This document shows positions 3,390 through 64,000 of a stretch of DNA of 64,000 bases, one piece after another; the first letter of the stretch is position 1; the number at the start of each line of letters is the position of its first letter. The DNA is taken from assembly GCA_963724415.1 (NCBI GenBank), contig CAVRUS010000011.1, positions 561-64,560 on the forward strand. Reading direction: 5' to 3'. The DNA is from an uncultured Actinomycetota bacterium (GTDB lineage Bacteria; Actinomycetota; UBA4738; HRBIN12). A program made the position numbers and the translations under genes. Below the pieces are notes generated by a model. It worked only from the letters and a program-made list of their open reading frames with translations. It did not search any database and was not told the DNA's origin.

Positions 3390-3920
3390 ATGGCGCGCAC
3401 CAGGGTCCGCAAGCTGGCCCCTATCGTCATCGGGCTGCTGCTCACCGCCTGCTCCTCCGAGGCGTTCGAATCCTCGCGGCACGGGTACAGCCTGGAGGTG
3501 CCTTCAGGCTGGGAGGTCACGGAGTACCCCGGAACGTGGACGCAGCTCGAGGAGTTCTCGCCGGGGGCAGAGGTTCCGGGGGAGGACGTCGTCGCTCCGC
3601 CGGACCTGTCGTCGTTCCTCGTGAGCAACTCGATGGAGATCCCCTCCGACATGACGGCGGCCGAGTGGCAGGAAGCCTTCGATGCGCTCGTGGCGCCGGC
3701 GCTGACCGAGGAGTGCCCCGGTACGACGGCAAGCGACGTCGTCGCGGGCGAGCCGGCGGCGGCGGTGGAACAGCCGTGCGAAGGGTCGATCATCGTCGGG
3801 CGGCGTCTCACGCACGCAGGACGCGGGTACTACTTCACGATCCGGTTCCCGGCCGATGATGCCGCTGCGAGGGAGACGCTCGAGAGCGTGGTTCAGTCGA
3901 TCGAGTTCATCGACGACTGA
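3390..3920 (+). CDS. putative lipoprotein (LLLTACSS lipobox)
   Basis: ATG at 3390 is preceded by GAGGAGGG. N-terminal MARTRVRKLAPIVIGLLLTACSSE. Its 3' end overlaps the convergent cyclase gene by 14 nt. Confidence 0.65.
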   Translation: MARTRVRKLAPIVIGLLLTACSSEAFESSRHGYSLEVPSGWEVTEYPGTWTQLEEFSPGAEVPGEDVVAPPDLSSFLVSNSMEIPSDMTAAEWQEAFDALVAPALTEECPGTTASDVVAGEPAAAVEQPCEGSIIVGRRLTHAGRGYYFTIRFPADDAAARETLESVVQSIEFIDD

Positions 3921-6900
3921 CCGTCAAGTGACCTCGGCGTGGGCCGGTGACGGTCGGGCGGACTCGATCCGCTCGAGGAGCGACACGGCGCCGATCCCCG
4001 TGAGGAACGCCGTGCTCTCGGCGAGGGCCTCGGTCGTGAGCTCCTCGTCCGGCAGGACGTGGGCCATGTCGGCGGCGCAGAACGCCTGATCCAGGCGGCG
4101 CGTCGAGCGCCCGCCACTCGCCGAGCGCTCGCTCGTACCCGGCGAGGGCGTCCTCGCGGCGGCCCTCGAGCGCCGCCAGGCCGGCCTCCGCCGTGCGGCG
4201 GACCGCGTCGATCCAACGTCCCCGGAGCGGCGCCATCGCCTCGAGCGCACGGCGGAGCCGATCCGGGTCGCGCAACCAGACGGCCGCGCGCGCGGCCTCC
4301 CGGGCGGCGTAGTGCGCGTTGACGCCGCTCGGTTCGAGCTCGACCGCTTCGATCGCGGCCTCGAACGCCGGGGCGGGATCGCCGCCCAGGAGGTGGACCA
4401 GCGCGGATTCGCGGCCGAACCACGTGTGCATCGCGAGCTGCTCCGCGGCCTCGATCCGCGGCGCGATCCCGTCGAGCCGGCGGCGCGCGGCGGCGACATC
4501 TCCCCGATGCGCCTGGAGGAGGATCTCGCAGAACTCGCGCGCGAGCTCGTTCTCCGTACCCAGTTCACGCCCCTCGAGGCGGTGGAGCGCCTCCTCGGCC
4601 TCTTCCCAGCTGCCCAGCTCGATGGCCCCCTCGGCTGCGTTGGTCAGCCCGTGCATCTCGCCGGCGCGGTCCCCTGCCCGCCGGGCCGTCTCGGCGCTCT
4701 CGAGGATCGCGCGGAGCGCTCCGGCCGGATCCTCCTCCAAGCTCCCGATCCCGATCGCCATGAGCGCCCAGCTCCGGTAGCGGAGGCTGCCGATCTCGTC
4801 GGCCAGCTCCAGCTCGCCGCGTCCGAGGATCGTCGCCTCCCGGTGGCGGCCGAGGTTGAAGTACGCGCCACCCTTCGCGTCCAGGGCCTCGATCATCACG
4901 TCGGTGAGGTGGAGCCGCTCGGCGATCGTCAGCGCGCGCTCGGCCAACGGGATCGCGGCCTCCACCGCGCCGGTCGCGCGCAGGGCCTGGGCGAGCTTCG
5001 CGCACAGCCGCGCCGCGACGTCTTCGTCGGCGTCGCCGAGGGCCTCCAGCGCGCGCTCCATCCGCTCCGCCGCCTCGGCCCGGCGGTCCTGTGGGCGGAG
5101 GACCTCGTACAGGTCGGCCGTCGCCCGGCCGGCGGCCGCGTGATCGCCCAGCTCCTCGTGGAGCGCGATCGCCTCCTCGTACAGCGCCTCGGCTCGGTCG
5201 AACCACGCCGCGAGTGTGGCGGCCGATGCGGCGGTGGTGAGGAGGGAGGCTCGCTCCGGCCCCTTCGGCGTCACGTCGAGGGCGATCTCCGCGTAGCCGA
5301 TCGCCTGCTCGGGCGAACCGAGCGAGAGCGCCCGCTGCGCCGCCTGGGAGAGCCAGTCGCGGGCGCGCGCGGCCAGCGCATCGGCCTCCGGTCCCTCCGG
5401 CGAAGCGCGGTACGCCTCGACGTAGTGGGTGGCGACGACGCCGGCGAGCTCGTCGTCGCTGAGCGACTCGAGATGGTGCGCGGCCGCGAGGTGCCGGCTC
5501 CGCCGGTCGGGCTTCGAGAGCGTCGAGTAGGCGACCTCCTTGATCAGCGCCTGCAGGAACGAGTACTGGCCTCGCTCCGGCGAGCGCGCGTCGACCTCGA
5601 GCCCGAGGAACTCCCTCCGGACCAGCTCGCGCAGCCGCGCCTCGACCTGCTCCCGGCCCGAGCCGGCGACGGCCGCCAGGCCTTCGACCGTGAAGGTCAT
5701 GCCGACGACCGAGGCGTCCTGCACCAGCGCGCGGTCCTCGGGCGGCAGCACGTCCAACCGTGCCGCGATCAGCGCGTGGAGCGTCTCGGGGATGGTGTCG
5801 AGGGTCCCGACCTCGCCCACGAGGACGTACGCGTCGTCGCGCGCTTCGAGCGCGCCGCGGTCGACCAGCATCCGGACGGTCTCCACGGCGTAGAGCGGCA
5901 TCCCCTCGGCGCGCGCGACGATCCGCTCGACGCTCTCCGGCGGCATGCCGTGGACGAATCCCTCGACGAGCTCGGCGATCACCGGGTCGGGGAGTCGCTC
6001 GAGGTGCATCGCGGTGAAGCTGCGCTGGCCGGATCCCCAGTTCGGGCGCTTGTCGGCGAGCTCGGGTCTCGCCATCGTGACGATCAGGATCGGATGGCTC
6101 TTCGACCACTCGAGGATCGACTCGATGAAGTCGAGCAACCCCGGGTCGGCCCACTGGAGGTCCTCGAAGACCATCACGATGGTGCCCTGCTCCGCGATCC
6201 GCTCGAAGAAGGCCCGCCACGCGGCGAACAGCTCCTCGCGGTCGCCGTGCGGAGCGGGGTCGAGCCCGAGCAGGTGCGCGAGCCGCGGCTCGATCCATCG
6301 CCGCTCGTCGGGATCCGAGACGAACTCGGCCACCGACGCCGAGAGCTTGCGCCGTGAGGTGGCCGGGTCGTCGGTCTCGGCGATCCCGGCCCGCATCCGG
6401 ACCATCTCGCCCAGGGCCCAGAACGTGACGCCGTCGCCGTAGGACGGGCATCGGCCGCGATGCCAATAGAGCACCTCGACGAAGCCGTCGATCCACTTGA
6501 GCAGCTCCCAGGCGAGCCGCGACTTGCCGACGCCGGCGATCCCGGTGACCGAGACGAGCCGAGCCTTCCGTTCGGCGCCGGTCGCGCGGACGAGCTCCTT
6601 GATCGAGCGGAGGTCCTCGGCGCGACCGACGAACGGAGGCTCGATCGCCTCGCCGCGGCCGGCGCCGCGGAGCTCGCCGAGGACGCGGAGCGCGCGCCAC
6701 GCGGGAACGACCGTCTCCTTGCCCTTCAACGTGAGGTCGCCGAACTTCTCGAACGCGATCGCGCGGCCGGTCGCCCGGACCGTCGTCTCGCCGACGAGGA
6801 CGGTGCCGGGCTCGGCCATCGACTGGAGCCGGGAGGCCGTGTTCACCAGGTCGCCCGCGACGATCCCCTGCGAGGTGGCGCCGACCGTCGCGGCGGCCTC

Positions 6901-7410
6901 GCCGGTGAGGACGCCTGCGCGGGCACGGAGGTCGGCGCCGACGTCCGCGCCGAGGGTCTCGACGGCCTCGAGCAGCTCGAGCGCCGCCCGGACCGCACGC
7001 TCGGCGTCGTCCTCGTGCGCCGCCGGCGTCCCCCAGACCGCCATCACGGCGTCGCCGATGAACTTCTCGACGAGACCGCCGTAGCGCTCGATCGTCTCCC
7101 GGGCCGTCTCGAAGTAGCGGGACAGCAGGTCGCGGACCTCCTCGGGGTCACGGCCCTCCGCGAGGTTCGTCGAGCCGACGAGGTCGGCGAACAGGACCGA
7201 CACGAGACGGCGCTCGGTCGACGGCGTGGCGGCGGCCGGGACGGGCGGGGCCGCGCTCGTGCCGATCGTCGCCCCGCACTCCCCGCAGAACTTGCTGTCG
7301 GGAGCGTTGGGCGCGCTGCATGCGTCGCAGACGATCACGAGCGCCGAGCCGCATTCCTTACAGAACTTGCGGCCCGGCTCGTTCTCGGTCCCGCAGTTCG
7401 AACAGTTCAC
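3907..7410 (-). CDS. double zinc-ribbon / class III adenylate-guanylate cyclase / STAND (AAA) NTPase / TPR protein, paralog 1
   Basis: 1167 aa. N-terminal CxxC pairs (CSNCG..CKECG, CDACS..CGECG). Cyclase motifs VSVLFADLVGST and KFIGDAVMAVWG. P-loop GIAGVGKS. A long TPR-like helical C-terminal region. The last 60 aa or so are low-complexity. Confidence 0.85.
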   Translation of the reverse strand: MNCSNCGTENEPGRKFCKECGSALVIVCDACSAPNAPDSKFCGECGATIGTSAAPPVPAAATPSTERRLVSVLFADLVGSTNLAEGRDPEEVRDLLSRYFETARETIERYGGLVEKFIGDAVMAVWGTPAAHEDDAERAVRAALELLEAVETLGADVGADLRARAGVLTGEAAATVGATSQGIVAGDLVNTASRLQSMAEPGTVLVGETTVRATGRAIAFEKFGDLTLKGKETVVPAWRALRVLGELRGAGRGEAIEPPFVGRAEDLRSIKELVRATGAERKARLVSVTGIAGVGKSRLAWELLKWIDGFVEVLYWHRGRCPSYGDGVTFWALGEMVRMRAGIAETDDPATSRRKLSASVAEFVSDPDERRWIEPRLAHLLGLDPAPHGDREELFAAWRAFFERIAEQGTIVMVFEDLQWADPGLLDFIESILEWSKSHPILIVTMARPELADKRPNWGSGQRSFTAMHLERLPDPVIAELVEGFVHGMPPESVERIVARAEGMPLYAVETVRMLVDRGALEARDDAYVLVGEVGTLDTIPETLHALIAARLDVLPPEDRALVQDASVVGMTFTVEGLAAVAGSGREQVEARLRELVRREFLGLEVDARSPERGQYSFLQALIKEVAYSTLSKPDRRSRHLAAAHHLESLSDDELAGVVATHYVEAYRASPEGPEADALAARARDWLSQAAQRALSLGSPEQAIGYAEIALDVTPKGPERASLLTTAASAATLAAWFDRAEALYEEAIALHEELGDHAAAGRATADLYEVLRPQDRRAEAAERMERALEALGDADEDVAARLCAKLAQALRATGAVEAAIPLAERALTIAERLHLTDVMIEALDAKGGAYFNLGRHREATILGRGELELADEIGSLRYRSWALMAIGIGSLEEDPAGALRAILESAETARRAGDRAGEMHGLTNAAEGAIELGSWEEAEEALHRLEGRELGTENELAREFCEILLQAHRGDVAAARRRLDGIAPRIEAAEQLAMHTWFGRESALVHLLGGDPAPAFEAAIEAVELEPSGVNAHYAAREAARAAVWLRDPDRLRRALEAMAPLRGRWIDAVRRTAEAGLAALEGRREDALAGYERALGEWRALDAPPGSGVLRRRHGPRPAGRGAHDRGPRREHGVPHGDRRRVAPRADRVRPTVTGPRRGHLTVSRR

Positions 7411-7510
7411 GTCGAAACCTCTCCTCGCCGGGGGCCGAAGCGTACCCGGAGCCTTCGAGGACCGCGCTAGGCGTGGCGTCAGCCCTTTGACACTCCCTCA
7501 GCGCGAGCGC

Positions 7511-27284: not shown

Positions 27285-30200
27285 CTAGCGCGTCGCCATC
27301 TCGAGTTGCTCGGCCACGCCGGCGGAGACGACGTTCCCCTTCTGCGCGTACAGCTCCCGCGCTCGGCGGAGAGCGTCCATCCGTTCGGCGGAGTCTCCGA
27401 CTGCGGACAACACCGTGGCGAGGTCCATGAGACTGTCCGCGCACATGTTCGTGTCGTCGGTCTCTTCGGCGAGCTCGACCGCCGCTCGCGCCAGGGTTGC
27501 CGCCTCGGCATGCTCGCCGCGCGCGGCAAGGACCTTCGCCTTGGCGCTCCGCCACAAGACCTGGGTCGCGAGATCGTCGTCGGCCCCGATCTCCTCCGCG
27601 ATGCGACAGAACTCCTCGGCCTCCTCCAACCGTCCCTGGGCGCAGATCGCATGCGCCAGAAGCGCTGCCGCGGTGGCCTGGTACCCGAGGTCCCCGAGCC
27701 GGGTGACCTCGTCGTACCCAGCTCGGAGGGCTCGCTCCGCGGCCGCCGGATCTCCCGCGAGCGTCTCGATGAACCCCTCGGCCTCGGAAGCGAAGGACGC
27801 CCGCATCCTGAGCCCGTGGTCCTCGAGGATCTCGAGGCTCTTGCGGACGAGTCGTCGAGCTTCATCGATCCGACCCTGCATCGCGTTCAGTGCCGCCATG
27901 CTCCGGATCGCGCCCGCCTCCGCGGTCGGATTCCCCTTCGCGAGCTCCATGATCCTCTCGCATCGAGTCATGACGTCGGCCACCGGCGCCGGCCCGAACA
28001 GGCCGGTACCCGCGTACATGCGAAGGCTTTCGGCCTCCTCATATTCGGCGCCGGCCTTCCGCGCGTGCTCGATCGCCTGTTCGAGCGCGCGGTCGGCCTT
28101 CGCGTAGGTGCTCTGCGTGAAGTGCACGTCTCCGAGCAGGCGGTACGCCCTCGCGAGCCCGAGGTCGTCACCCAGCTCCTCGAGGACGGGGATCACGCTC
28201 CCCAGCGTCTCCAACGCCTCCTCGGATCGATGCTCGGGATCCGTGAACTCCCTCAGTAGGAGCGAGACGATCTGGACGTGGGCCTCGAGGCCACGGTCTC
28301 CGTTCGCTCGCGCGCGATCGACGGCGTCGCGCAGCATCGCCTCGGCACGGGCGATCTCTCCCGTCTCCATCAGCGACTGCCCGAACTCCGGGACCAGCGC
28401 GAGCCGCCGCGGGTCATCGAGCGGGAGGAGGTCGTAGCTGCGCCCCAGAAGGGTGGCGGCCGCCTGGATGTCGCCCCTCGCCAGCGCTCGTCGGCCGACC
28501 GAGGCGAGCGTCGCGCTGGCGCGGCCGATCAAGGCGTCCGTGTCATCATCGGGTTGACCGAGCTCCATGCGGTAGCGAGCCGCTCTCTCGAGGTGATAGG
28601 CGAGGATCTCCTCGTTCTCTCCGATCCGGTCGCCGGTGGTCCGCTCGAGCCAGCCGGCGAAACGCAGGTGGAGGTCGGCCCGCAGCTCCTTGGGGGCCTG
28701 GCGGTACGCCCCCTCCTGGATGAGGAGGTGATGGAAGCCGAACGCATCCTCGCCGAACGAGGCGGAGTGGTCGGGGGCGATCAGCTCACGCCGAACGAGG
28801 CTCTGCAGGATCGGACCCACGCGCGAACGCAATCCATCGGGGACCAGATCGACAACGGCTGCCCACGAGAAGATCTTGCCGATCACGGCGCCGCCGTGGA
28901 TCACGGCTCGCTCTTCCGCCGTGAGTCGATCCAGGCGAGCCCCGACGAGGGCCTGGATCGTCGGCGGGACCGTCGCGAGCGCGGCCTCCCTCGTCGACCC
29001 CCCGGCGTCCGCACCCTGGGCTTCGAGCACGCCGTCGTCCCGGAGCATCTTGACCATCTCCACGACGAACAGCGGATTGCCGCTTCCCACCTCGGAGATC
29101 CGTCCGCGGAGCCCGGCGCTCAGATCGCCGCCCTGGAGGAGCTCGTCGATCAACGTCCCGATCTCATCCGCTGCCAGCGGCTGCAGGTGAAGGATCGCCG
29201 CGTTCGGCAGGTGGGCCGCCCATCCGGATCGTTCCTCCAGCACATCGCTCCGGGCGAGGCAGAGGACGAGGATCGGGGCGTCCCGGCACGAGCGCAGGAG
29301 GTACTCGAGAAGATCGAGGAGCGCGGGTTCGGCCCACTGCAGGTCGTCCAAGATCACGACGAGCGGATGTTCCCGGGCTACCTGCTCCAGCAGCCGGCGG
29401 ATCGCCCAGAAGGTCTCCTGCATCCCCACGGTGGCGTCCGCCAGACCGATCGCTGCTGCGACCCGGTCGAACAGCAATCCTGATTCCTCGGCGCCGCGCA
29501 AGAGCGCCTGCAGCTTGGAGCGGGCGATCTCGAGGGGATCGTCGAGATCGATCCCCGCGAGCTCACGGACCGCCTCGGCCACCGGCCAGAACGTGATGCC
29601 GTCACCGTAGGGGAGGCATCGTCCCTCGATCGTGATCGCTTCGCCTTCGATGCCGGTGACGAATTCGCTCGCGAGCCGTGACTTGCCGGCCCCAGCGGTT
29701 CCCGTGACCGTGAGGAGCCGGCAGGCTCGCTGCGCGATAGCCAGGTCGAACGCCTCGCGCATCCGGCCGATCTCATCAGCACGACCCACCAGGGGAGGAT
29801 CTGCTCGCTTCGGCCGCTCGCCGAACGCGGTGGTGTCGAGCAGTCGGTAGGCCGTTACCGGCAGGCGCTTCCCTTTGAGGACCAGGGAGGCTCCTTCATC
29901 GACCGAGACGGAATCGCGAACCAAATCGTAGGTCTCCCGCCCGAGGAGGATCTCCCCAGGGGCCGCGGCTTGCTGGAGTCGAGCGGCCAGGTTCACGGCT
30001 CCTCCGACGACGGCTGGGCCCGAAGCGGAGCCAGAGACGAAAACCTCTCCGGTGCTCACGCCGGTTCGCGTGGTGATCGAGACACCGGCCGTGCGCTCCA
30101 GGTCGTCGTTGAGCGAAGTCAGTGCGCTCCGCATGTCGGCCGCCGCACGCGTCGCCCGAAGGGCATCGTCCTCGTGCATCCGCGGGATGCCGAAGACCGC

Positions 30201-30473
30201 CATCACCGCGTCGCCGATGTACTTCTCGACCGTGCCACCGTGCCGTTCGAGCACGCGGCGCATCTCCTCGAAGAACCTGGTCATCACCCGCCGAACCGTC
30301 TCGGGGTCGAGCTCGTCGCCCATCGGGGTGGAGCCGACCACGTCGCAGAAGACGATCGAAACGGTCTTCCTCGCCATGCCGAGCGCGGGCACGGCCGTCA
30401 GCGGGGTGGCACATGACATACAGAAGCGGGCGGGTTCCGGGTTGTCCCGGCCACACGATCCACAGATCGGCAT
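27285..30473 (-). CDS. zinc-ribbon / class III cyclase / STAND NTPase / TPR protein, paralog 2
   Basis: 1062 aa. CGSCG..CMSC ribbon, VSIVFCDVVGST and KYIGDAVMAVFG cyclase motifs, P-loop GTAGAGKS, and a TPR C-terminus. Confidence 0.9.
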   Translation of the reverse strand: MPICGSCGRDNPEPARFCMSCATPLTAVPALGMARKTVSIVFCDVVGSTPMGDELDPETVRRVMTRFFEEMRRVLERHGGTVEKYIGDAVMAVFGIPRMHEDDALRATRAAADMRSALTSLNDDLERTAGVSITTRTGVSTGEVFVSGSASGPAVVGGAVNLAARLQQAAAPGEILLGRETYDLVRDSVSVDEGASLVLKGKRLPVTAYRLLDTTAFGERPKRADPPLVGRADEIGRMREAFDLAIAQRACRLLTVTGTAGAGKSRLASEFVTGIEGEAITIEGRCLPYGDGITFWPVAEAVRELAGIDLDDPLEIARSKLQALLRGAEESGLLFDRVAAAIGLADATVGMQETFWAIRRLLEQVAREHPLVVILDDLQWAEPALLDLLEYLLRSCRDAPILVLCLARSDVLEERSGWAAHLPNAAILHLQPLAADEIGTLIDELLQGGDLSAGLRGRISEVGSGNPLFVVEMVKMLRDDGVLEAQGADAGGSTREAALATVPPTIQALVGARLDRLTAEERAVIHGGAVIGKIFSWAAVVDLVPDGLRSRVGPILQSLVRRELIAPDHSASFGEDAFGFHHLLIQEGAYRQAPKELRADLHLRFAGWLERTTGDRIGENEEILAYHLERAARYRMELGQPDDDTDALIGRASATLASVGRRALARGDIQAAATLLGRSYDLLPLDDPRRLALVPEFGQSLMETGEIARAEAMLRDAVDRARANGDRGLEAHVQIVSLLLREFTDPEHRSEEALETLGSVIPVLEELGDDLGLARAYRLLGDVHFTQSTYAKADRALEQAIEHARKAGAEYEEAESLRMYAGTGLFGPAPVADVMTRCERIMELAKGNPTAEAGAIRSMAALNAMQGRIDEARRLVRKSLEILEDHGLRMRASFASEAEGFIETLAGDPAAAERALRAGYDEVTRLGDLGYQATAAALLAHAICAQGRLEEAEEFCRIAEEIGADDDLATQVLWRSAKAKVLAARGEHAEAATLARAAVELAEETDDTNMCADSLMDLATVLSAVGDSAERMDALRRARELYAQKGNVVSAGVAEQLEMATR

Positions 30474-30599
30474 GTCGGTCGGAGTGTAGGCACCCGACCT
30501 CGACCACCGATAGTGCTGCGCGAGAGAGGCCTGCCGAGTTGACCAGATGGGTCGACCGCATCAGAGTCGCCGCACGGCTCAACTCGGGGAGGGGGTCAC

Positions 30600-32577: not shown

Positions 32578-33355
32578 TCAGCGAGCGATCGCTCCCGCCG
32601 CTCGCACGATCGCGGGGAGGACCTCGCCGATCGGAGCTCGGATCGTCACGTCGGCTCCGTCGTCGAGCGGGGTCTCGCCCTGGTTCACGATGACCAACCG
32701 CGCGCCGCGCCGGTGGGCATCGACGGCGAGCGTCGCGGCCGGCTGCACGGTGAGCGTCGTCCCGATCGCGAGGAACAGGTCACACGCGCTCGAGGCCACG
32801 ACCGCCGTCTCGAGCACGAGCGGATCGAGGCGCTCGCCGAACGCCACCGTCGCCGACTTCTGGATGCCGCCGCACTCGGTGCACGCAGGGTCGGGCTCGC
32901 CGGCGCGGACGCGATCGAGCTGCTCCTGCATCGGCGTGCGGCGGTCGCACGACAGGCACTTCGCCTGGTGGATCGTCCCGTGCAGCTCGAGCACCCGCTC
33001 GGAGCCGGCCGCCTGGTGGAGCCCGTCGATGTTCTGGGTCATCAGCGCGAGCAGCGTGCCGCGCCGCTCCAGCTCGGCGAGCGCACGATGCCCGTCGTTC
33101 GGCTGCGCCGTCCACGCCGGGTGGCGCATCCGCTCCTGCCACGCCTGGACGCGGACCTGTGGATCGCGCACGTAGTCCTCGATGTTCACGAGCTTCATCC
33201 GCTCGGGGTTCGTGGTCCACACGCCGTTCGGCCCTCGGAAGTCGGGGATGCCCGACTCGGTGCTGATGCCCGGCCCCGGTCAGGACGACGATCCGCTCGG
33301 ATGTGCGGATATCGCCGGCAACTCGTTCGATCGAACGTTCGGGCTCGTCGCTCAC
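32578..33355 (-). pseudogene. Sir2-family NAD-dependent deacylase with a frameshift in a G/C run near 33270
   Basis: The C-terminal catalytic and Zn-binding part (QNIDGLH, CLSCDRR, CTECGG) is in ORF 32578-33222. The N-terminal GAGISTESGIPDFRGPNG is only readable after a 1-nt shift at ..accggggccgggcatc.. Confidence 0.7.
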
Positions 33356-33431
33356 GCAGTGGAGCCTAGGCCGGTTCACGAGCGAGTTGTCGGATCTGAT
33401 TGGATATAACGACTCTGTTATCATCGCGCAG

Positions 33432-33737
33432 ATGAGAGCAGGCACGATTCTTCGGGAGGCTCGGCATCGAGCCGGGCTCACGCAGCGTGAGCTCGCGCGC
33501 AGGGCGGGTGTGCCCCAGCCGGCGGTCTCCCGGATCGAGCGCAACCACGTCTCCCCGCGACTCGAGACGCTCGACGTCCTGCTCCGCGGATGTGGCCTCG
33601 CCCTCGACCTGGTTGAGCGACCCGGCCTCGGCGTCGATCGGACGTTGATCCAGGAGCGACTGCGCCTCTCGCCGATCGAACGCGCGCGGCTGACCGCCCG
33701 GGAATGGAACCGGACGCGCGGCCTCTCGTCGGGGTGA
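33432..33737 (+). CDS. XRE-family HTH transcriptional regulator
   Basis: LTQRELARRAGVPQPAVSRIERN is the HTH. The upstream region is AT-richer (ggatataacgactctgttatcat). Confidence 0.75.
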   Translation: MRAGTILREARHRAGLTQRELARRAGVPQPAVSRIERNHVSPRLETLDVLLRGCGLALDLVERPGLGVDRTLIQERLRLSPIERARLTAREWNRTRGLSSG

Positions 33738-33809
33738 CACCCTCTGAGCGAACCTGCCTTCGACCCCATCGCCGGTCTCCGGACGCTCGTCGAGCACGGC
33801 GTCCGCTTC

Positions 33810-34235
33810 GTGTTGATCGGCGGCTACGCGGCTGCGCTCCGCGGCTCGCCGATGATGACGGGCGACGTCGACATCTGCCCGGCTCGCGATCGCGGCAACC
33901 TCGATCGGATGGCCGAAGCTCTGCAAAGCCTGCACGCCCGCCTCCGTGGAGCACCGGCCGATGTCCCGTTCTTGCTCGACGGCCGGACACTCGAGGCGGG
34001 TGACCACTTCACGTTCTCGACCGACGCGGGTCCCATGGACTGCCTGAGCACGCCGGCCGGGACCGATGGGTTCGTGGACCTCGATGCGTCGGCCACCGAC
34101 GAGGACCTCGACGGGCTCGTCGTCCGCGTGGCCTCCCTCGACGACCTGATCCGCATGAAGCGCGCTGCCGACCGGCCACAGGACCGGATCGCGGTCGAGT
34201 GGCTCTCTGCGCTCCGCGACGAGCTCGAAAGCTGA
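33810..34235 (+). CDS. nucleotidyltransferase-fold protein (AbiEii-like / MNT-like)
   Basis: LIGGYAAALRGSPMMTGDVDI fits the GG..A....GS....T.D.D pattern. It starts 70 nt after the XRE stop, and the ORF is open back to 33738 so a non-ATG start is possible. Confidence 0.55.
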   Translation: MLIGGYAAALRGSPMMTGDVDICPARDRGNLDRMAEALQSLHARLRGAPADVPFLLDGRTLEAGDHFTFSTDAGPMDCLSTPAGTDGFVDLDASATDEDLDGLVVRVASLDDLIRMKRAADRPQDRIAVEWLSALRDELES

Positions 34236-34328
34236 GCGCCGGCGCTCTCGCGGGCGCCTGAGTCGATACGGTCTTGCGTGTCGCCGAGACGGCTGGCCGA
34301 CACCTTTCCGTGAGCGGAGGAGGGTTCG

Positions 34329-34658
34329 ATGGCACAAGCGAACGCGATCATCGTCAGGATCCGGGCGGACGCGGCCGAGGAGTTCGAGCGGCTGTTCGAG
34401 GCGGAGGAGCTGCCGATCTGGGACGAGTTCGTCTCCACCGGCGCCTTCCTGAAGGCGCGGCTCGCTCGCGTGGAGTACGGGTCGGAGGAGCGCGAGGACG
34501 TCGCCCTCTATCTGATCTATGCGGAGGTGCCGGGGATGGCCGAGCACTCCGCGCACGACCGCGATCCACGGTTCGGGACCTTCCTCGAGAAGGCTCGTGG
34601 GCTCCAGCCCGAGAGCCCATCCGTCTTCGGAGGCAACGTGATCTTCGAACGCGGATAG
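34329..34658 (+). CDS. hypothetical small protein
   Basis: 109 aa. The SD GAGGAGGG precedes the ATG. Confidence 0.55.
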   Translation: MAQANAIIVRIRADAAEEFERLFEAEELPIWDEFVSTGAFLKARLARVEYGSEEREDVALYLIYAEVPGMAEHSAHDRDPRFGTFLEKARGLQPESPSVFGGNVIFERG

Positions 34659-34705: not shown

Positions 34706-37700
34706 GTGCTGACCTGCGCGAACTGCGGGCGAGAGTCTCCGGAGGACTTCGCGTTCTGCCCGGCGTGCTCGGCGCCGTTGGCTCCGGCCGGCGGCCAGGA
34801 CGTCCGGAAGACCGTGACGGTCGTCTTCTGCGACGTCACCGGCTCGACCGCGATGGGCGAACGCCTCGATCCCGAGTCGCTCCGCCGGGTGATGTCGCGC
34901 TACTTCGCCGAGATGCGGGCGGCGCTGGAGCGCCACGGGGGCACCGTGGAGAAGTTCATCGGCGACGCGGTGATGGCGGTGTTCGGCGTCCCGGCGATCC
35001 ACGAGGACGATGCCCTTCGGGCCGTTCGCGCCGCCGCTGAGATGCGAGAGGCCCTCGCAGGTCCTCAACAAGGAGCTGGAGCGCGACCACGGCGTTTCGC
35101 TCGCCGCCCGGATCGGGGTGAACACCGGCGAGGTTGTCGCGGGTGACCACGGCCGACACGCTCGTCACCGGCGACGCCGTGAACGTCGCCGCCCGTCTGG
35201 AGCAGGCCGCGGAGCCGGGGACCGTCCTCATCGGCGAGGAGACGCTCCGCCTCGTCCGGGACGCGGTGGTCGTCGAGCCGGTCCCACCGCTCGAGGTCAA
35301 GGGCAAGTCGGAGCCGCTCGCCGCGTTCCGTCTGGTCGAGGTGACGGCCGGGGTCGCCGGGGTCGCGCGTCGCCTGGACTCGCCGATGGTCGGCCGGGAG
35401 CGTGAGCTCGCCCGGCTCCGGCAGGCGTTCGAGGCCGCGATCGCCGACCGCTCGTGTCAGCTGTTCACGATCCTCGGCACCCCCGGGGTCGGCAAGTCCC
35501 GGTTGGTCGAGGAGTTCCTCGGTTCGCTCGGAGAGGCCACGGTCCTTCGAGGTCGCTGCCTCCCGTACGGCGAGGGGATCACGTTCTTCCCCGTCGGGGA
35601 GGTCGTGAAGGAGGCGGCCGGCCTCGAGGACTTCGACGCACCGGACGAGATCGAGCGGAAGATCTGCGCGGTGCATCGGCACGGACGGCCCGGCGTGCTC
35701 GACGCTCGCGCAACTGTTCGCCGCGGCCGATCGTGACAGCTCGGTCGAGGAGACGTTCTGGGCGGTCCGGTCGTTCCTGGAGGCGGTCGCGCAGACCGCA
35801 CCGCTCGCCGTGGTGTTCGACGACATCCACTGGGGAGAGCCCACGTTCCTGGACCTGATCGAGCACATCACGGACTGGGCGCGCGAGGCGCCGATCCTGG
35901 TGCTCTGCGTCGCGCGGCCCGAGCTGCTGGACGAGCGGGCGGGCTGGGGCGGCGGCAAGTTCAACGCCACGACGATCTCCCTCGAGCCACTCTCCGACGA
36001 CGAGTGCGGCGACCTGATCGGGAACCTGCTCGGCCGCGCGCCGCTTCCGGAGGAGGCGCGGGACCGGATCCTCGCCGCGGCCGAGGGCACGCCGTTGTTC
36101 GTCGAGGAGATGCTCTCGATGCTGATCGACGAAGGATTGCTGGCTCGCGACGGCGACCGATGGGTGGCGACCGGATCGCTGTCCGACCTGCGGGTGCCGC
36201 CGACGATCCAGGCGCTGCTGGCCGCGCGGCTCGATCAGCTCACCGGCGACGAACGCGCGGCGATCCAGCGGGCGGCGGTGTGCGGCAAGCAGTTCCACGT
36301 GGGCGCGGTGGCGGCGTTGCTGGACGGCGAGGGCCGGGAGGTGCGGCCGACCCTGATGAGCCTGGTCCGGCGGGACCTGATCCGGCCGGACCGGTCGATC
36401 GCTGGCGGGCGAGGACGCGTTCCGGTTCCGCCACCAGCTGATCCGCGACGCCGCCTACGAGGCCGCGCCCAAGGCGCTCCGCGCCGAGCTCCACGAGCGG
36501 TACGCCGACTGGCTCGAGGGCGTCGGGGAGGCTCGTGTCGAGGAGTTCGAGGAGATCCTCGCCTACCACCTGGAACGGGCGCACCGACTGCTCGAGGAGC
36601 TCGGACCACTGGACGAGGCCGGGCGCGAGCTGGGGCTCCGGGCCGCCGGGCACTACGCGGCGAGCGCCCGCCGTGCGTCGGATCGGAGCGACGATCGGGC
36701 GGCCGCGACACTGTTCCGGCACGCGGCCGACCTCCTTCCCGAGGGTCATCCGGATCGACCGCGCGCCCTGTACGACGTCGGGCGCGCGAGCCTGCGCGGC
36801 CTCGACCCACGCGTGGCGTCCGCCGCGCTCGACGAGGCCGTGGCGGCTGCCGCCGCGAGCGGACAGCGATCGATCGAGTGGATGGCCAGGATCGACCGGG
36901 GCCTCATGCAGATGATGATCGACCCGCATCGGGTTCACCAACGACGACTTCCGGGCGGAGGTGGCCGCGGCGAGGGCCGAGCTCGAGGCGGGCGGCGACG
37001 ACGAGGCGCTCGCGATCGTGTGGATGGGGCTGGTGCAGGTGGAGTGGATCCCGTGCCGCTTCGACGCGGCGAGGGAGGCGACGATCCACGCCGTCGAGCA
37101 CGCTCGTCGCATCCGGGATCGGTCGCTCCTGATGGACGCGATGTCGCTCCAGGGTGGGCGCCGAGCTGCTCGGCTCGACGACGCCGGCCGAAGGGAGGCC
37201 GTCTGCTCGATGCGGTGACGGCCGAGTTCGGACAGGAGGACTTCATCGGACATGCGGCCCTGATCCAGGAAGCGTGCTTCGACGCGTTGACCGGAGATTT
37301 CGATCGGGCGCGCGAACGGCATCAGTGAGTCCGAGGCGCTCGCCGAACGATTCGGTTCGGACCTGTGGGTCACGGCGAGCTACGAGTTCGGCGGCGAGAT
37401 CGAGATGATGGCGGGCGACTCCGAGGCGGCGGAGCGATCGTTCCGCAAGGAATACGAGATCCATCAGCGCCTCGGCGACGAGGGACACGGGTCGACCGCC
37501 GCGGCCTACCTCGCCCTGGCGCTCTGCTCGTCTCGGTCGGTTCGACGAGGCGGAAGAGTTCGCCACGATCGCGCGCGACGATCGGCGCCGACGACGACCT
37601 GGCCACGCAGGCGAGCGCCCGCTCCGCCCAGGCGCTGGTCCGGTCCGCACGGGGCGAGCACGACGAGGCGCACCGGCTCGCGCGAGAGGCCGTCGACATG

Positions 37701-61664: not shown

Positions 61665-61850
61665 CGCGTTCCTTCCATCGGTAGGACCGGGGGACCTCCT
61701 GCTCGGGTGCCGGGATCCCGGCGCCTCTCGGGAGGCCGCTGCCAACCCTCCGAGGAAAGATGTAGCCGCCCCACGTGACGCGAGGAGGACGGGCGAGGGA
61801 ACGTTCGGTGTCGGCTTCGGCGGCCGAGCCCCGCCACCTATGCTCCTGCC

Positions 61851-64000
61851 GTGAAACGGTGCCCGAGCTGCGGGGAGGAGAACGCCGACCGGGCGCGGTT
61901 CTGCCAGCGTTGTGCGACGCCGCTCGAGGAGGCCGCGCCCCCGCCCGGTGACGTCCGGAAGGTCGTCACGATCGTGTTCGCCGACGTGACCGGTTCCACG
62001 GCGCTCGGCGAGCGCCTCGATCCCGAGGCCCTCCGACGCGTGATGGGTCGGTACTTCGACGAGATGGCCGCTGCGATCGAGCGCCACGGCGGGACGGTCG
62101 AGAAGTTCATCGGCGACGCCGTGATGGCCGTGTTCGGGATCCCGCGGCTCCACGAGGACGACGCCGTCCGGGCCGTGCGCGCGGCGATCGGGATGCGCGA
62201 GGCGCTCGAGGCGCTGAACCTGGATCTGGAGCGCGAGCACGGCGAGGGACTGGCCGCGCGGATCGGCGTGAACACGGGCGAGGTCGTGGCCGGCGACCCG
62301 TCGGCCGGGCAGCGCCTCGTCACCGGCGACGCGGTGAACGTCGCCGCGCGGTTGGAACAGGCGGCCGCGCCCGGCGAGATCCTGCTCGGCGATCCCACCT
62401 ACCGTCTGGTCAAGGACGCCGTGGAGGTCGAGCCCGTGGACGCCCTCGCCCTGAAGGGGAAGCAGCAGCCGGTGCCGGCGTTCCGGCTGATCGCCGTGGC
62501 GGCCGACACCGCGGGACACGAGCGCCACCTCGATTCGCCGATGGTGGGCCGCGCGAAGGAGCTCTCCCTGCTGGAGCACGCCCTCGAGCGCGCGGTCACC
62601 GACCGCACCTCGCACCTCTTCACCCTGATGGGTCCGGCCGGGGTCGGGAAGTCCCGGCTCGTGGCCGAGTTCCTCGGCGGATCGGTGAGCGAGGCGACGG
62701 TCCTGCGCGGCCGCTGCCTCTCCTACGGCGAGGGCATCACGTTCTTCCCGCTCGCCGACGTGGTCCACCAGGCGGCGGGGATCCTGGACAGCGACCTCCC
62801 GGCGGTCGCTCGCTCGAAGCTCGACGACGTCCTCGGCGACGCGCCCGATCGGGATCGCGTCGCGGGACTGGTGGCCGGTCTGTTCGGCTGGGCGGATCCC
62901 GGTGCGACCGAGGACGCGTTCTGGGCGGTCCGCAAGCTCCTCGAACACCTCGCACGCGATCGCCCGCTGGTGGTCGTGTTCGACGACATCCATTGGGGAG
63001 AGCCGACGTTCCTCGACCTGATCGAACACCTCGCGGACTGGACGCGGGATGCCGCGGTCCTGTTGCTGTGCATCGCGAGGCCCGAGCTCCTCGAGGTTCG
63101 CCCCGGTTGGGGCGGCGGCAAGATGAACGCGACCTCGATCCTGCTCGAGCCGCTCGCCGGCGACGATGCGTCGCAGCTCGTCGACAACCTCCTCGGGCGG
63201 GCCGACATCCCGCAGGTCGCGCGCGACCGGATCCTCGAGGCGGCCGAGGGCAACCCGCTCTTCGTCGAGGAGATGCTCGCGATGCTGATCGACGACGGCC
63301 TCCTCCGATTCGAGGACGGTGCGTGGCGATCCGTCGAGGACCTGGCGAACGTGACCGTGCCGCCGACGATCCACCTGCTCCTGGCCGCGAGGCTCGACCG
63401 GCTCGACGCCGATGAGCGCGCGGTGATCGAGCGCGGCTCGGTGGAGGGCAAGGTGTTCCACTCCGGCGCCGTCGCGACGCTCAGCCAGGAGACGGCCCGC
63501 CCGAACGTTCGGTCCCGGCTGCTGGCACTGGCCCGCAAGGAGCTGATCCGGCCGGACCGGCCCGAGTTCGCCGGCGAGGACGCCTTCCGGTTCCGGCATC
63601 TGCTGATCCGTGATGCCGCGTATCAGGCGATGCCGAAGGAGCAGCGAGCCGATCTGCACGAGCGCTTCGCGGGCTGGCTGGCGGAGGCCGCGCGCGAGCG
63701 GATGGCCGAGTACGAGGAGATCCTCGGATACCACCTCGAGCAGGCCTACCGGTACCGGGAGGAGCTCGGCGCTGCCGACGAGGCCGCGCGGGGGATCGCG
63801 ACGCGCGCGGCCGAGTATCTGTTCGCCTCGGCGGTCCGCGCGGACGAGCGCAACGACCTGAACGCGGCGAAGGCGTTCCTGGAACGCAGCGTCGCGCTCT
63901 CGGACGGAGGTCTCCAGGGGCGATCGCTGCTGCTGCTGGCCGAGGTCGTCCAGGAGCTGGGCGAGTACACGGCGGCACACGAGATCGTCCTGCGCGCCCG
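61851..64000 (+). CDS. zinc-ribbon / class III cyclase / STAND NTPase / TPR protein, paralog 4 (3'-partial at window end)
   Basis: GTG start. CPSCG..CQRC ribbon, VTIVFADVTGST and KFIGDAVMAVFG cyclase motifs, P-loop GPAGVGKS, VFDDIHWGEPTFLDLIEH. It continues beyond position 64000. Confidence 0.85.
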   Translation, partial: MKRCPSCGEENADRARFCQRCATPLEEAAPPPGDVRKVVTIVFADVTGSTALGERLDPEALRRVMGRYFDEMAAAIERHGGTVEKFIGDAVMAVFGIPRLHEDDAVRAVRAAIGMREALEALNLDLEREHGEGLAARIGVNTGEVVAGDPSAGQRLVTGDAVNVAARLEQAAAPGEILLGDPTYRLVKDAVEVEPVDALALKGKQQPVPAFRLIAVAADTAGHERHLDSPMVGRAKELSLLEHALERAVTDRTSHLFTLMGPAGVGKSRLVAEFLGGSVSEATVLRGRCLSYGEGITFFPLADVVHQAAGILDSDLPAVARSKLDDVLGDAPDRDRVAGLVAGLFGWADPGATEDAFWAVRKLLEHLARDRPLVVVFDDIHWGEPTFLDLIEHLADWTRDAAVLLLCIARPELLEVRPGWGGGKMNATSILLEPLAGDDASQLVDNLLGRADIPQVARDRILEAAEGNPLFVEEMLAMLIDDGLLRFEDGAWRSVEDLANVTVPPTIHLLLAARLDRLDADERAVIERGSVEGKVFHSGAVATLSQETARPNVRSRLLALARKELIRPDRPEFAGEDAFRFRHLLIRDAAYQAMPKEQRADLHERFAGWLAEAARERMAEYEEILGYHLEQAYRYREELGAADEAARGIATRAAEYLFASAVRADERNDLNAAKAFLERSVALSDGGLQGRSLLLLAEVVQELGEYTAAHEIVLRA

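Follow-up and report, generated by a model that had tools for sequence, protein, structure and literature searches.

Nucleotidyltransferases (NTases) of the MenT/AbiEii type are recently understood toxins which block translation by extending the 3' ends of tRNAs, and their antitoxins are strikingly diverse. Among the closest described systems is MenAT1 of Mycobacterium tuberculosis (Rv0078B-Rv0078A; PDB 8AN4, 8AN5 and 8RR5), whose toxin, MenT1, auto-phosphorylates at T39 and depends on D41 and K137 for its activity (PMC10435456, PMC11375011). Here we describe a two-gene cassette on contig CAVRUS010000011.1 of an uncultured Actinomycetota bacterium, within a stretch of 64,000 nucleotides (the window; G+C 69%). 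The cassette couples an XRE regulator to a minimal NTase. With moderate confidence we read it as an autonomous, autoregulated two-gene toxin-antitoxin (TA)-like module of the MenAT/AbiE kind, the toxicity being predicted from sequence. Its features are as follows (aa, amino acids; HTH, helix-turn-helix).

33402-34238, forward strand: the whole cassette, 835 bp, delimited by where homology to close relatives starts and stops
33404-33424, forward strand: putative operator, an inverted repeat ATATAAC-GACTCT-GTTATCA (33404-33423) which overlaps a -10-like box
33432-33737, forward strand: XRE gene, 101 aa plus TGA, putative antitoxin and autorepressor
XRE residues 1-60: HTH_3 domain
33615-33731, forward strand: conserved C-terminal module of the XRE protein (residues 62-100), GVDRTLIQERLRLSPIERARL
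33735-33747, forward strand: gene junction, with the XRE stop TGA at 33735-33737 (next base C), a 6-nt spacer and CTGA at 33744-33747
33744-34235, forward strand: minimal NTase gene, 163 aa plus TGA, putative toxin
33858-33860, 33864-33866, 33870-33872 and 34038-34040: NTase codons T39, D41, D43 and D99
34158-34160, 34173-34175 and 34182-34184: NTase codons K139, R144 and D147

A search of 5.8 billion proteins gave 2072 matches to the NTase, the best of them 79-93% identical and all unnamed or called 'hypothetical protein', which is also its name in RefSeq and metagenome annotations. A HMMER scan of 1.84 billion cluster representatives (50% clusters) found 5640 relatives at E<=1e-3. The minimal NTase signature (GS...DxD) noticed in a preliminary description of this DNA is present as GG..GS..TGDVDI, together with a third Asp (D99), K139, R144 and D147. 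It is conserved in 65 diverse homologues, where G26, G34, T39, D41, D43, N52, D99, K139, R144 and D147 are invariant or at least 90% conserved; the catalytic Asp residues are therefore kept on alignment.

Profile and fold comparisons both led to MenT1. In an hmmsearch of all PDB sequences MenT1 (8an4) came first (E 1.2e-5, residues 11-155) and TM1012 second, and hhalign aligned the NTase to MenT1 with 95.4% probability (E 1.7e-8). The AlphaFold model of the NTase (predicted local distance difference test, pLDDT, 96) had MenT1 (8an5_B) as its first Foldseek match, with E 8.5e-7 and a template-modelling (TM) score of 0.67, followed by TM1012, ANT(2'')-Ia and LnuA. The conserved G26, G34, D41, D43 and D99 (motifs I/II) align to the GG...TRDVD segment of MenT1, and K139 (motif III) aligns with the Lys of MenT1 HLIAMK. 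The aligned pairs, window residue first, are T39 with T39, D41 with D41, K139 with K137 and D147 with D149. T39 is the Ser/Thr two residues before the first catalytic Asp, as are T39 of MenT1 and S78 of MenT3, and is a putative phospho-acceptor. By sequence, motifs I-III of the NTase retain the metal-binding and catalytic residues of MenT1/AbiEii-type toxins.

The Pfam assignments were more diffuse. The window NTase remained below the gathering thresholds of DUF6036 (17.4 vs 23.6 bits) and DUF2204 (19.3 vs 20.3 bits). Over 65 family members, DUF6036 matched 44 and DUF2204 34 (E<=0.01 for both), Aminoglyc_resit nine and AbiEii seven, the AbiEii matches being weak (best 8e-6). A MenT1 fragment itself matched Pfam AbiEii at 35.7 bits (cut-off 22.5, E 1.1e-8).

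The fold matches to ANT(2'')-Ia and LnuA (TM 0.5-0.62) bring in another reading, in which the enzyme modifies an antibiotic or a metabolite, as these two do, under an adjacent XRE repressor. The weak Aminoglyc_resit matches in nine of the 65 family members would suit it, and so would the hosts, soil Actinomycetota, where such enzymes are common. We consider this quite improbable. For the window protein MenT1 is the better match by profile and by fold, and the ANT(2'')-Ia and LnuA structures rank below both MenT1 and TM1012. Two hallmarks of AbiEii-type NTases, the motif-III Lys and the R..D motif, hardly vary in the family. The window protein itself gave no Aminoglyc_resit match, and neither a resistance-type name nor an NCBIfam match was found. 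Moreover, a 4-nt gene overlap, fusion to a repressor and HTH-less partners of 55-70 aa are unlike resistance genes.

The case for a TA-like module draws on how the two genes are held together. We surveyed 5 long metagenomic contigs and 80 loci of species-representative genomes, found with an alignment of closer homologues; the genomes were all metagenome-assembled genomes (MAGs) and came from Actinomycetota, Chloroflexota/Limnocylindria, Acidimicrobiia and Acidobacteriota. A same-strand XRE homologue or remnant (with the HTH, the C-terminal module or both) lay directly 5' of the NTase in all 85 loci. In 65 of the 78 non-redundant loci with a full XRE gene, the XRE stop overlapped the NTase start in a 4-nt NTGA, which was GTGA in 32, ATGA in 22, CTGA in six and TTGA in five.

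A minimal NTase with a GS..DxD signature might also be the antitoxin of an MNT-HEPN (MntA/HepT) system, and the preliminary description had spoken of an AbiEii/MntA-type enzyme. The AbiEii part of this assignment stands, in the form of remote homology to MenT1, while the MntA/HepT part does not. Neither a HEPN gene nor a conserved third gene adjoins the pair in any of 82 loci, Pfam NTP_transf_2 and HEPN gave no match, and the top structural relatives are MenT1 and TM1012, not MntA. Because the HEPN partner is absent, the MNT-HEPN explanation is effectively refuted.

The start of the window NTase had to be moved. A mechanical list of open reading frames (ORFs) puts it at GTG 33810, 72 nt past the XRE stop, and the preliminary description accordingly had the NTase begin about 70 nt after the XRE gene. 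The frame is, however, open from the XRE stop on, and its translation reads HPLSEPAFDPIAGLRTLVEHGVRF ahead of GTG 33810. Most NTase homologues found in the protein search have 163 aa and the N-terminus M/V-SEPAFDP, which matches the window codon CTG 33744. Since the homologues begin 22 codons upstream of GTG 33810, we rejected that codon and define the gene as 33744-34235 with a CTG start, 6 nt past the XRE stop. Database gene calls of 177 aa, among them that of contig L086, are upstream over-extensions.

Where the window has CTGA (33744-33747), DNA alignments and the junction census showed ATGA, GTGA or TTGA in relatives. The CTG start recurs in an independent Joint Genome Institute (JGI) contig (L086) and in the closest MAG, MFD06742.bin.2.313 (L006), whose cassette is the nearest relative of that of the window (NTase 96% identical in aa). 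Both have it within the usual CTGA overlap, which makes it a natural variant of the clade and not an error. The DNA alignments further showed that the variable basic tail of the XRE protein has a 2-3-nt indel, which shifts the window stop to TGA 33735. The indel touches just the last few non-conserved XRE residues, and the displaced stop puts XRE and NTase in one reading frame. Such a frame match has a one-in-three chance of arising at random and may mean nothing. Readthrough of TGA-C at 33735 would give an XRE-NTase protein of 267 aa, close in length and architecture to the natural fusions of 269-270 aa (P0126, P0134 and P0141), and the in-frame TGA-C could yield a low level of fusion in this way.

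These irregularities could be taken to mean that the window copy is a decaying remnant which no longer makes the NTase. A CTG replaces ATG, GTG or TTG, the usual NTGA overlap is lost through the indel in the XRE tail, two bases of the left operator arm are mismatched, and both flanking genes are pseudogenes. All the same, the NTase ORF is intact and 93-96% identical to its relatives, with a ratio of nonsynonymous to synonymous substitutions (dN/dS) of 0.09-0.10 against the closest. The CTG start is common to L006 and L086, which keep the canonical CTGA overlap, the XRE change is confined to the variable basic tail, and long-read assembly errors could account for part of the flanking frameshifts. 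We therefore regard a dead copy as very improbable. The dN/dS values of 0.07-0.17 for XRE and 0.07-0.21 for the NTase indicate purifying selection on both genes; the window has no second NTase copy, and the ORF runs intact over 163 codons. The window copy of the TA-like module looks functional but slightly eroded, in its CTG start, its XRE-tail indel and its two left-arm operator mismatches.

The 101-aa XRE regulator at 33432-33737 was described correctly in the preliminary account. Its residues 7-59 match Pfam HTH_3 (PF01381) and score 52.3 bits (cut-off 23, E 5.8e-14). The closest solved relatives of the XRE family profile are the antitoxins HigA (6af3_B, 2e-14), HipB and HigA2, and by this profile comparison the HTH is of the antitoxin type. 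The remainder of the protein forms a module with the pattern G-[VIL]-D-R-[ST]-x-I-R-x-x-L-x-L-[ST]-P-x-x-R (GVDRTLIR..LTP..R in the window), in which D69 and R84 are invariant and R70, I73 and L77 at least 90% conserved among 40 diverse sequences. A database search with the module alone returned 767 proteins, mostly XREs of about 100-110 aa, together with several genuine HTH-less forms of 54-69 aa.

In L060 (Thermoanaerobaculia) and in L083 and L092 (Chloroflexota), the gene upstream of the NTase consists of the module only, about 68-70 aa without an HTH. Since the partner persists beside the NTase when the HTH is missing, the module is the lasting companion of the NTase and the HTH an add-on. 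The module is thus a putative NTase-binding and neutralising part. An HTH joined to a separate neutralising part is the usual plan of type II antitoxins.

The region upstream of the XRE gene also has features that would suit autoregulation. The AT-richer promoter region of the preliminary description corresponds to an AT-rich element just 5' of the gene, ATAACGACTCTGTTAT, at 33406-33421, which occurs once in the 64 kb against 0.02 occurrences expected. A check for palindromes upstream of 33432, which that description had proposed, revealed a co-varying inverted repeat 7-9 nt before the start. The palindrome is of the dimer type and has the consensus GATAnC-N6-GnTATCA. Close relatives have a perfect TGATAAC-N6-GTTATCA, the left arm of the window differs from the family consensus TGATAAC at two bases, and the element is unchanged in six close loci although their flanks diverge.

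We compared 75 unique regions upstream of XRE genes. The best inverted repeat had a spacer of 6 nt in every one of them, its arms were at least 6/7 complementary in 63, and it ended 7-9 nt ahead of the start codon in 56. The variable inner dinucleotide was complementary between the arms in 49 of the 75 (AG/CT 29, AA/TT 11, AT/AT 6, others). Loci with HTH-less partners had no operator. Because the half-sites co-vary, the palindrome is likely the auto-operator of XRE. Within it, TATCAT (33419-33424) lies 7 nt 5' of the XRE ATG, which suggests that it serves as the -10 element (TANNNT in Actinomycetota) of a leaderless mRNA. A scan for E. coli-type promoters and terminators found nothing, so it is conservation that carries this leaderless -10 assignment.

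The cassette behaves as a unit which changes its place. In blastn comparisons with seven close loci (81-89% nucleotide identity), homology spans 33402/33406 to 34228/34238, and its limits coincide with the operator and the stop codon. The flanks of these seven loci match the window at 25.6 kb, at 45-54 kb or at 61-63 kb, or match nothing. As judged from these alignments, the cassette has relocated among close relatives. There is no conserved neighbour, and housekeeping synteny was not found; the top flank cluster, in 18 of 82 loci, consists of multi-copy cyclase-AAA_16-TPR (cyclase-STAND) paralogues. Plasmid copies lie on a mobilizable (MOBF) 264-kb plasmid of Mycolicibacterium rufum and on a megaplasmid of Miltoncostaea oceani, annotated as 'helix-turn-helix transcriptional regulator' plus 'hypothetical protein'. 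The family is spread over Actinomycetota, Chloroflexota and Acidobacteriota at 56-62% identity.

The preliminary description had also called the setting of the pair consistent with a defence or mobile context, which our results do not uphold. PADLOC returned nothing for the NTase or for the neighbouring Sir2 gene, so there is no evidence of a defence island. The window neighbours are of signalling and housekeeping types (cyclase-AAA_16-TPR, BON, ArsR and hydrolases), and a phage search found none that carries the NTase. On these grounds we discarded a defence-island context.

Taken together, a repressor gene with a likely operator of its own, a coupled MenT1-like NTase, a persistent partner module, and relocation, plasmid carriage and cross-phylum spread are best fitted by the anatomy of a TA module. 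The preserved catalytic Asp residues, the strict pairing with coupling and the co-varying operator support this reading. The earlier view that the pair is built like a TA or abortive-infection module is thereby strengthened, with the antitoxin-type HTH and the variable context as further points.

A possible mechanism follows by homology with the described systems, for the RNA target as well as for the neutralisation. An XRE dimer would bind the palindrome through its N-terminal HTH and repress its own, probably leaderless, operon. Its residues 62-100 would bind the NTase and hold it inactive, through occlusion, through induced auto-phosphorylation at T39 (the effect of MenA1 on MenT1), or through both. 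If XRE were lost or degraded, the free NTase would add nucleotides to an essential RNA and growth would stop. By analogy with MenT1, MenT3 and MenT4, the likeliest target would be tRNA 3'-CCA ends, whose modification would block aminoacylation. The weak CTG start, or reinitiation which depends on the coupling, may keep the output of the toxin below that of the antitoxin.

Several observations weigh against a TA module of the MenAT/AbiE kind. The window NTase has no match to Pfam AbiEii (PF08843) at E<=1, and the essential D152 of MenT1 motif IV faces a variable position (A150 in the window). We therefore class the NTase, from profiles and alignments, as a remote MenT1 homologue near DUF6036/DUF2204 and not as a strict DUF1814 member. 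Its fold likeness to TM1012, ANT(2'')-Ia and LnuA is barely below that to MenT1, and for a fused homologue TM1012 takes the first fold rank. None of PADLOC, NCBIfam and PHROGs recognises the NTase, and no NCBIfam name was found for it. A literature search returned nothing on DUF6036, mentioned DUF2204 only in an irrelevant context and gave no description of an XRE-MenT-like pair. Neither MenA1 nor any solved chain resembles the module in sequence (best PDB E 0.22, to unrelated proteins). At L018:3887-4474 an in-frame deletion has brought XRE residues 26-60 up against the NTase start, so that the C-terminal module and the XRE N-terminus are lost while all NTase catalytic residues are kept; this locus is possibly a counter-example to the neutralisation model, or else a silent or unexpressed remnant. 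Finally, single-chain XRE-NTase fusions of about 250-310 aa make up about one fifth of the best distant representatives. Such a frequency is unusual for a classical type II pair.

The fusions lead to the rival that we take most seriously, although we judge it unlikely. The NTase-like domain would be an enzymatic or ligand-sensing partner of XRE, which for example nucleotidylylates XRE or senses a nucleotide, and the pair or fusion would be a signal-responsive transcription factor instead of an addiction module. The recurrence of natural fusions among distant representatives fits this well. One of them, P0134, is modelled as a compact body (pLDDT 95, predicted TM score, pTM, 0.83), and such a single predicted body would suit a non-toxic regulatory unit. 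One lineage of soil actinobacteria also has the pair in abundance and very highly conserved, and the neighbourhood of the pair is rich in signalling genes. The fusion P0126 (269 aa) lacks counterparts of T39, of the first catalytic Asp, D41, and of K139 in motif III (MAIRGLDF; MRLALGSYQD), and its architecture is still complete. Its sequence suggests that some fused members are catalytically dead. However, the great majority of members keep the catalytic residues, and the operator occurs only once in the window, at the promoter of the pair itself, with no sign of a regulon. HTH-less partners beside the NTase do not fit a core function as a transcription factor, and relocation, plasmid carriage and cross-phylum spread suit selfish modules better. 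We thus retain the TA-like module as our preferred interpretation.

A wider proposal can be put forward tentatively, and we hold it possible rather than probable. The family would be a large unrecognised branch of MenT-like RNA-nucleotidylating toxins (at least 5,600 clusters at 50% identity, from soil members of the Actinomycetota, Chloroflexota and Acidobacteriota), neutralised by a new module of about 40 aa (GVDRTxIR..L.LTP..R) whose sequence is related neither to MenA1 nor to AbiEi. The module would come in three formats: stand-alone with 54-69 aa, fused to the XRE HTH, which would provide the autoregulation, and joined to the toxin in a single chain. Single-chain members could be sensors which inhibit themselves until a trigger frees them, like fused toxin-antitoxin defence proteins.

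Some of the surveyed loci carry variants or fragments of the cassette. At L091:3001-3379 a partner gene without an HTH (57 aa) precedes the remains of an NTase gene, of which a large internal deletion has spared profile positions 21-33 and 128-163 only; an IS110 transposase and a NYN-domain gene lie close by. This pattern of decay, in which the short partner outlasts the NTase, fits the TA-like reading. In the Chloroflexota loci L077:4152-4319 (reverse strand) and L084:3140-3280 (reverse strand), a second, divergent NTase-like fragment lies on the opposite strand less than 1 kb from the cassette; these fragments match the family profile at E ~1e-8, in the N-terminal third only. An isolated 76-bp copy of the NTase 3' end (window 34160-34235) is present at L007:5838-5913, about 1.3 kb downstream of the intact cassette of that locus and 93% identical to the window; it may be the trace of a former insertion, or of recombination at the 3' end of the cassette. 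In the closest MAG (L006:3685-3985) one inserted base splits XRE after residue ~49, with both halves ~88-95% identical; either the gene was inactivated very recently, or the extra base is a long-read error.

Around the cassette the window contains these features.

32578-33357, reverse strand: CobB-type Sir2 gene, divergent from the XRE promoter, with a GTG start at ~33357
34329-34658, forward strand: ORF of 109 aa just downstream of the cassette, coding-like with a third-position G+C (GC3) of 0.88
34706-37700, forward strand: zinc-ribbon-cyclase-AAA_16-TPR (cyclase-STAND) gene, downstream of the cassette
27285-30560, reverse strand: intact 1091-aa paralogue of the preceding gene
3907-7497, reverse strand, and 61779-64000, forward strand: further cyclase-AAA_16-TPR paralogues

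The Sir2 gene had been called decayed, and it indeed has one frame change. It reads VSDEPERSIERVAGDIRTSERIVVLTGAG up to a single frameshift near 33270, just after the GAG motif, and continues as ISTESGIPDFRGPNGVWTTNP in the other frame; this could be real decay or a long-read indel. The cyclase-STAND neighbour at 34706-37700 is also frameshifted, with at least five frame changes (2>3>1>2>3>1>3) against its intact paralogue. Since the frame errors cluster in one gene, a true pseudogene is more plausible than random assembly error. The 109-aa ORF had no Pfam, NCBIfam or PADLOC match and no DNA match in the cassette flanks of close relatives, and it is not part of the conserved module.

If the TA-like interpretation is true, the cassette adds a very abundant, unannotated branch to the MenT/AbiEii toxins, as well as a new neutralising module and a natural series from stand-alone through HTH-fused to single-chain forms. 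This series makes the recruitment of antitoxin modules testable, and likewise the universality of antitoxin-induced Thr auto-phosphorylation. The co-varying operator half-sites are a ready system for the study of XRE specificity. Should the NTase prove non-toxic, the family would be a widespread uncharacterised HTH-coupled enzyme. We regard the locus as moderately interesting, on account of the very large size of the family, its new partner module and the information to be had from the split, HTH-less and fused forms.

Four described systems or families come closest to the cassette. DUF6036 (PF19502) and DUF2204 (PF09970) match most NTase relatives (44 and 34 of 65) and include TM1012 of Thermotoga maritima (PDB 2EWR, 2FCL and 4HX0), a top structural neighbour of the NTase. 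These families are uncharacterised, and the window NTase falls below both gathering thresholds. With the type II antitoxins HigA and HipB, the cassette shares the closest HTH (HigA, 6af3, and HipB), a small repressor as first gene of the operon and a palindrome over the promoter, the operator and the autoregulation being putative here. It differs from them in that the partner is an NTase and not a RelE-like RNase or a HipA kinase, and in a C-terminal module without a solved or named relative.

AbiE (AbiEi-AbiEii) and MenAT3/4, with DUF1814 toxins and COG5340 antitoxins, resemble the cassette in the order of a DNA-binding antitoxin gene, autoregulating there and putatively so here, followed by a Pol-beta-type NTase with motifs I-III in common. 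In contrast, AbiEii, MenT3 and MenT4 have about 250-300 aa with a larger C-terminal domain, and their antitoxin is a winged-helix COG5340 protein where the cassette has an XRE HTH_3. The PADLOC AbiE models miss the window NTase, and Pfam AbiEii is weak, in just seven of 65 relatives.

From MenAT1 the cassette is separated by an NTase identity of just ~24-31% to MenT1 and by the Pfam AbiEii match and the D152 of MenT1, the former missing from the window NTase and the latter not conserved in the family. The usual cassette partner has an XRE HTH and an operator, whereas MenA1 has no DNA-binding domain; the module has no detectable similarity to MenA1, and natural partner-NTase fusions occur in the cassette family. 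In both systems a small upstream partner comes first and a minimal NTase (~165-195 aa) second, and MenT1 is the best profile, hhalign and fold match to the window NTase. They share GG..G, T39, D41/D43, the third Asp, the motif-III Lys (K139, which is K137 in MenT1) and RPxD (D147, which is D149), and the HTH-less partners of some family loci, with 54-69 aa, are near the size of the 68-aa, likewise HTH-less MenA1.

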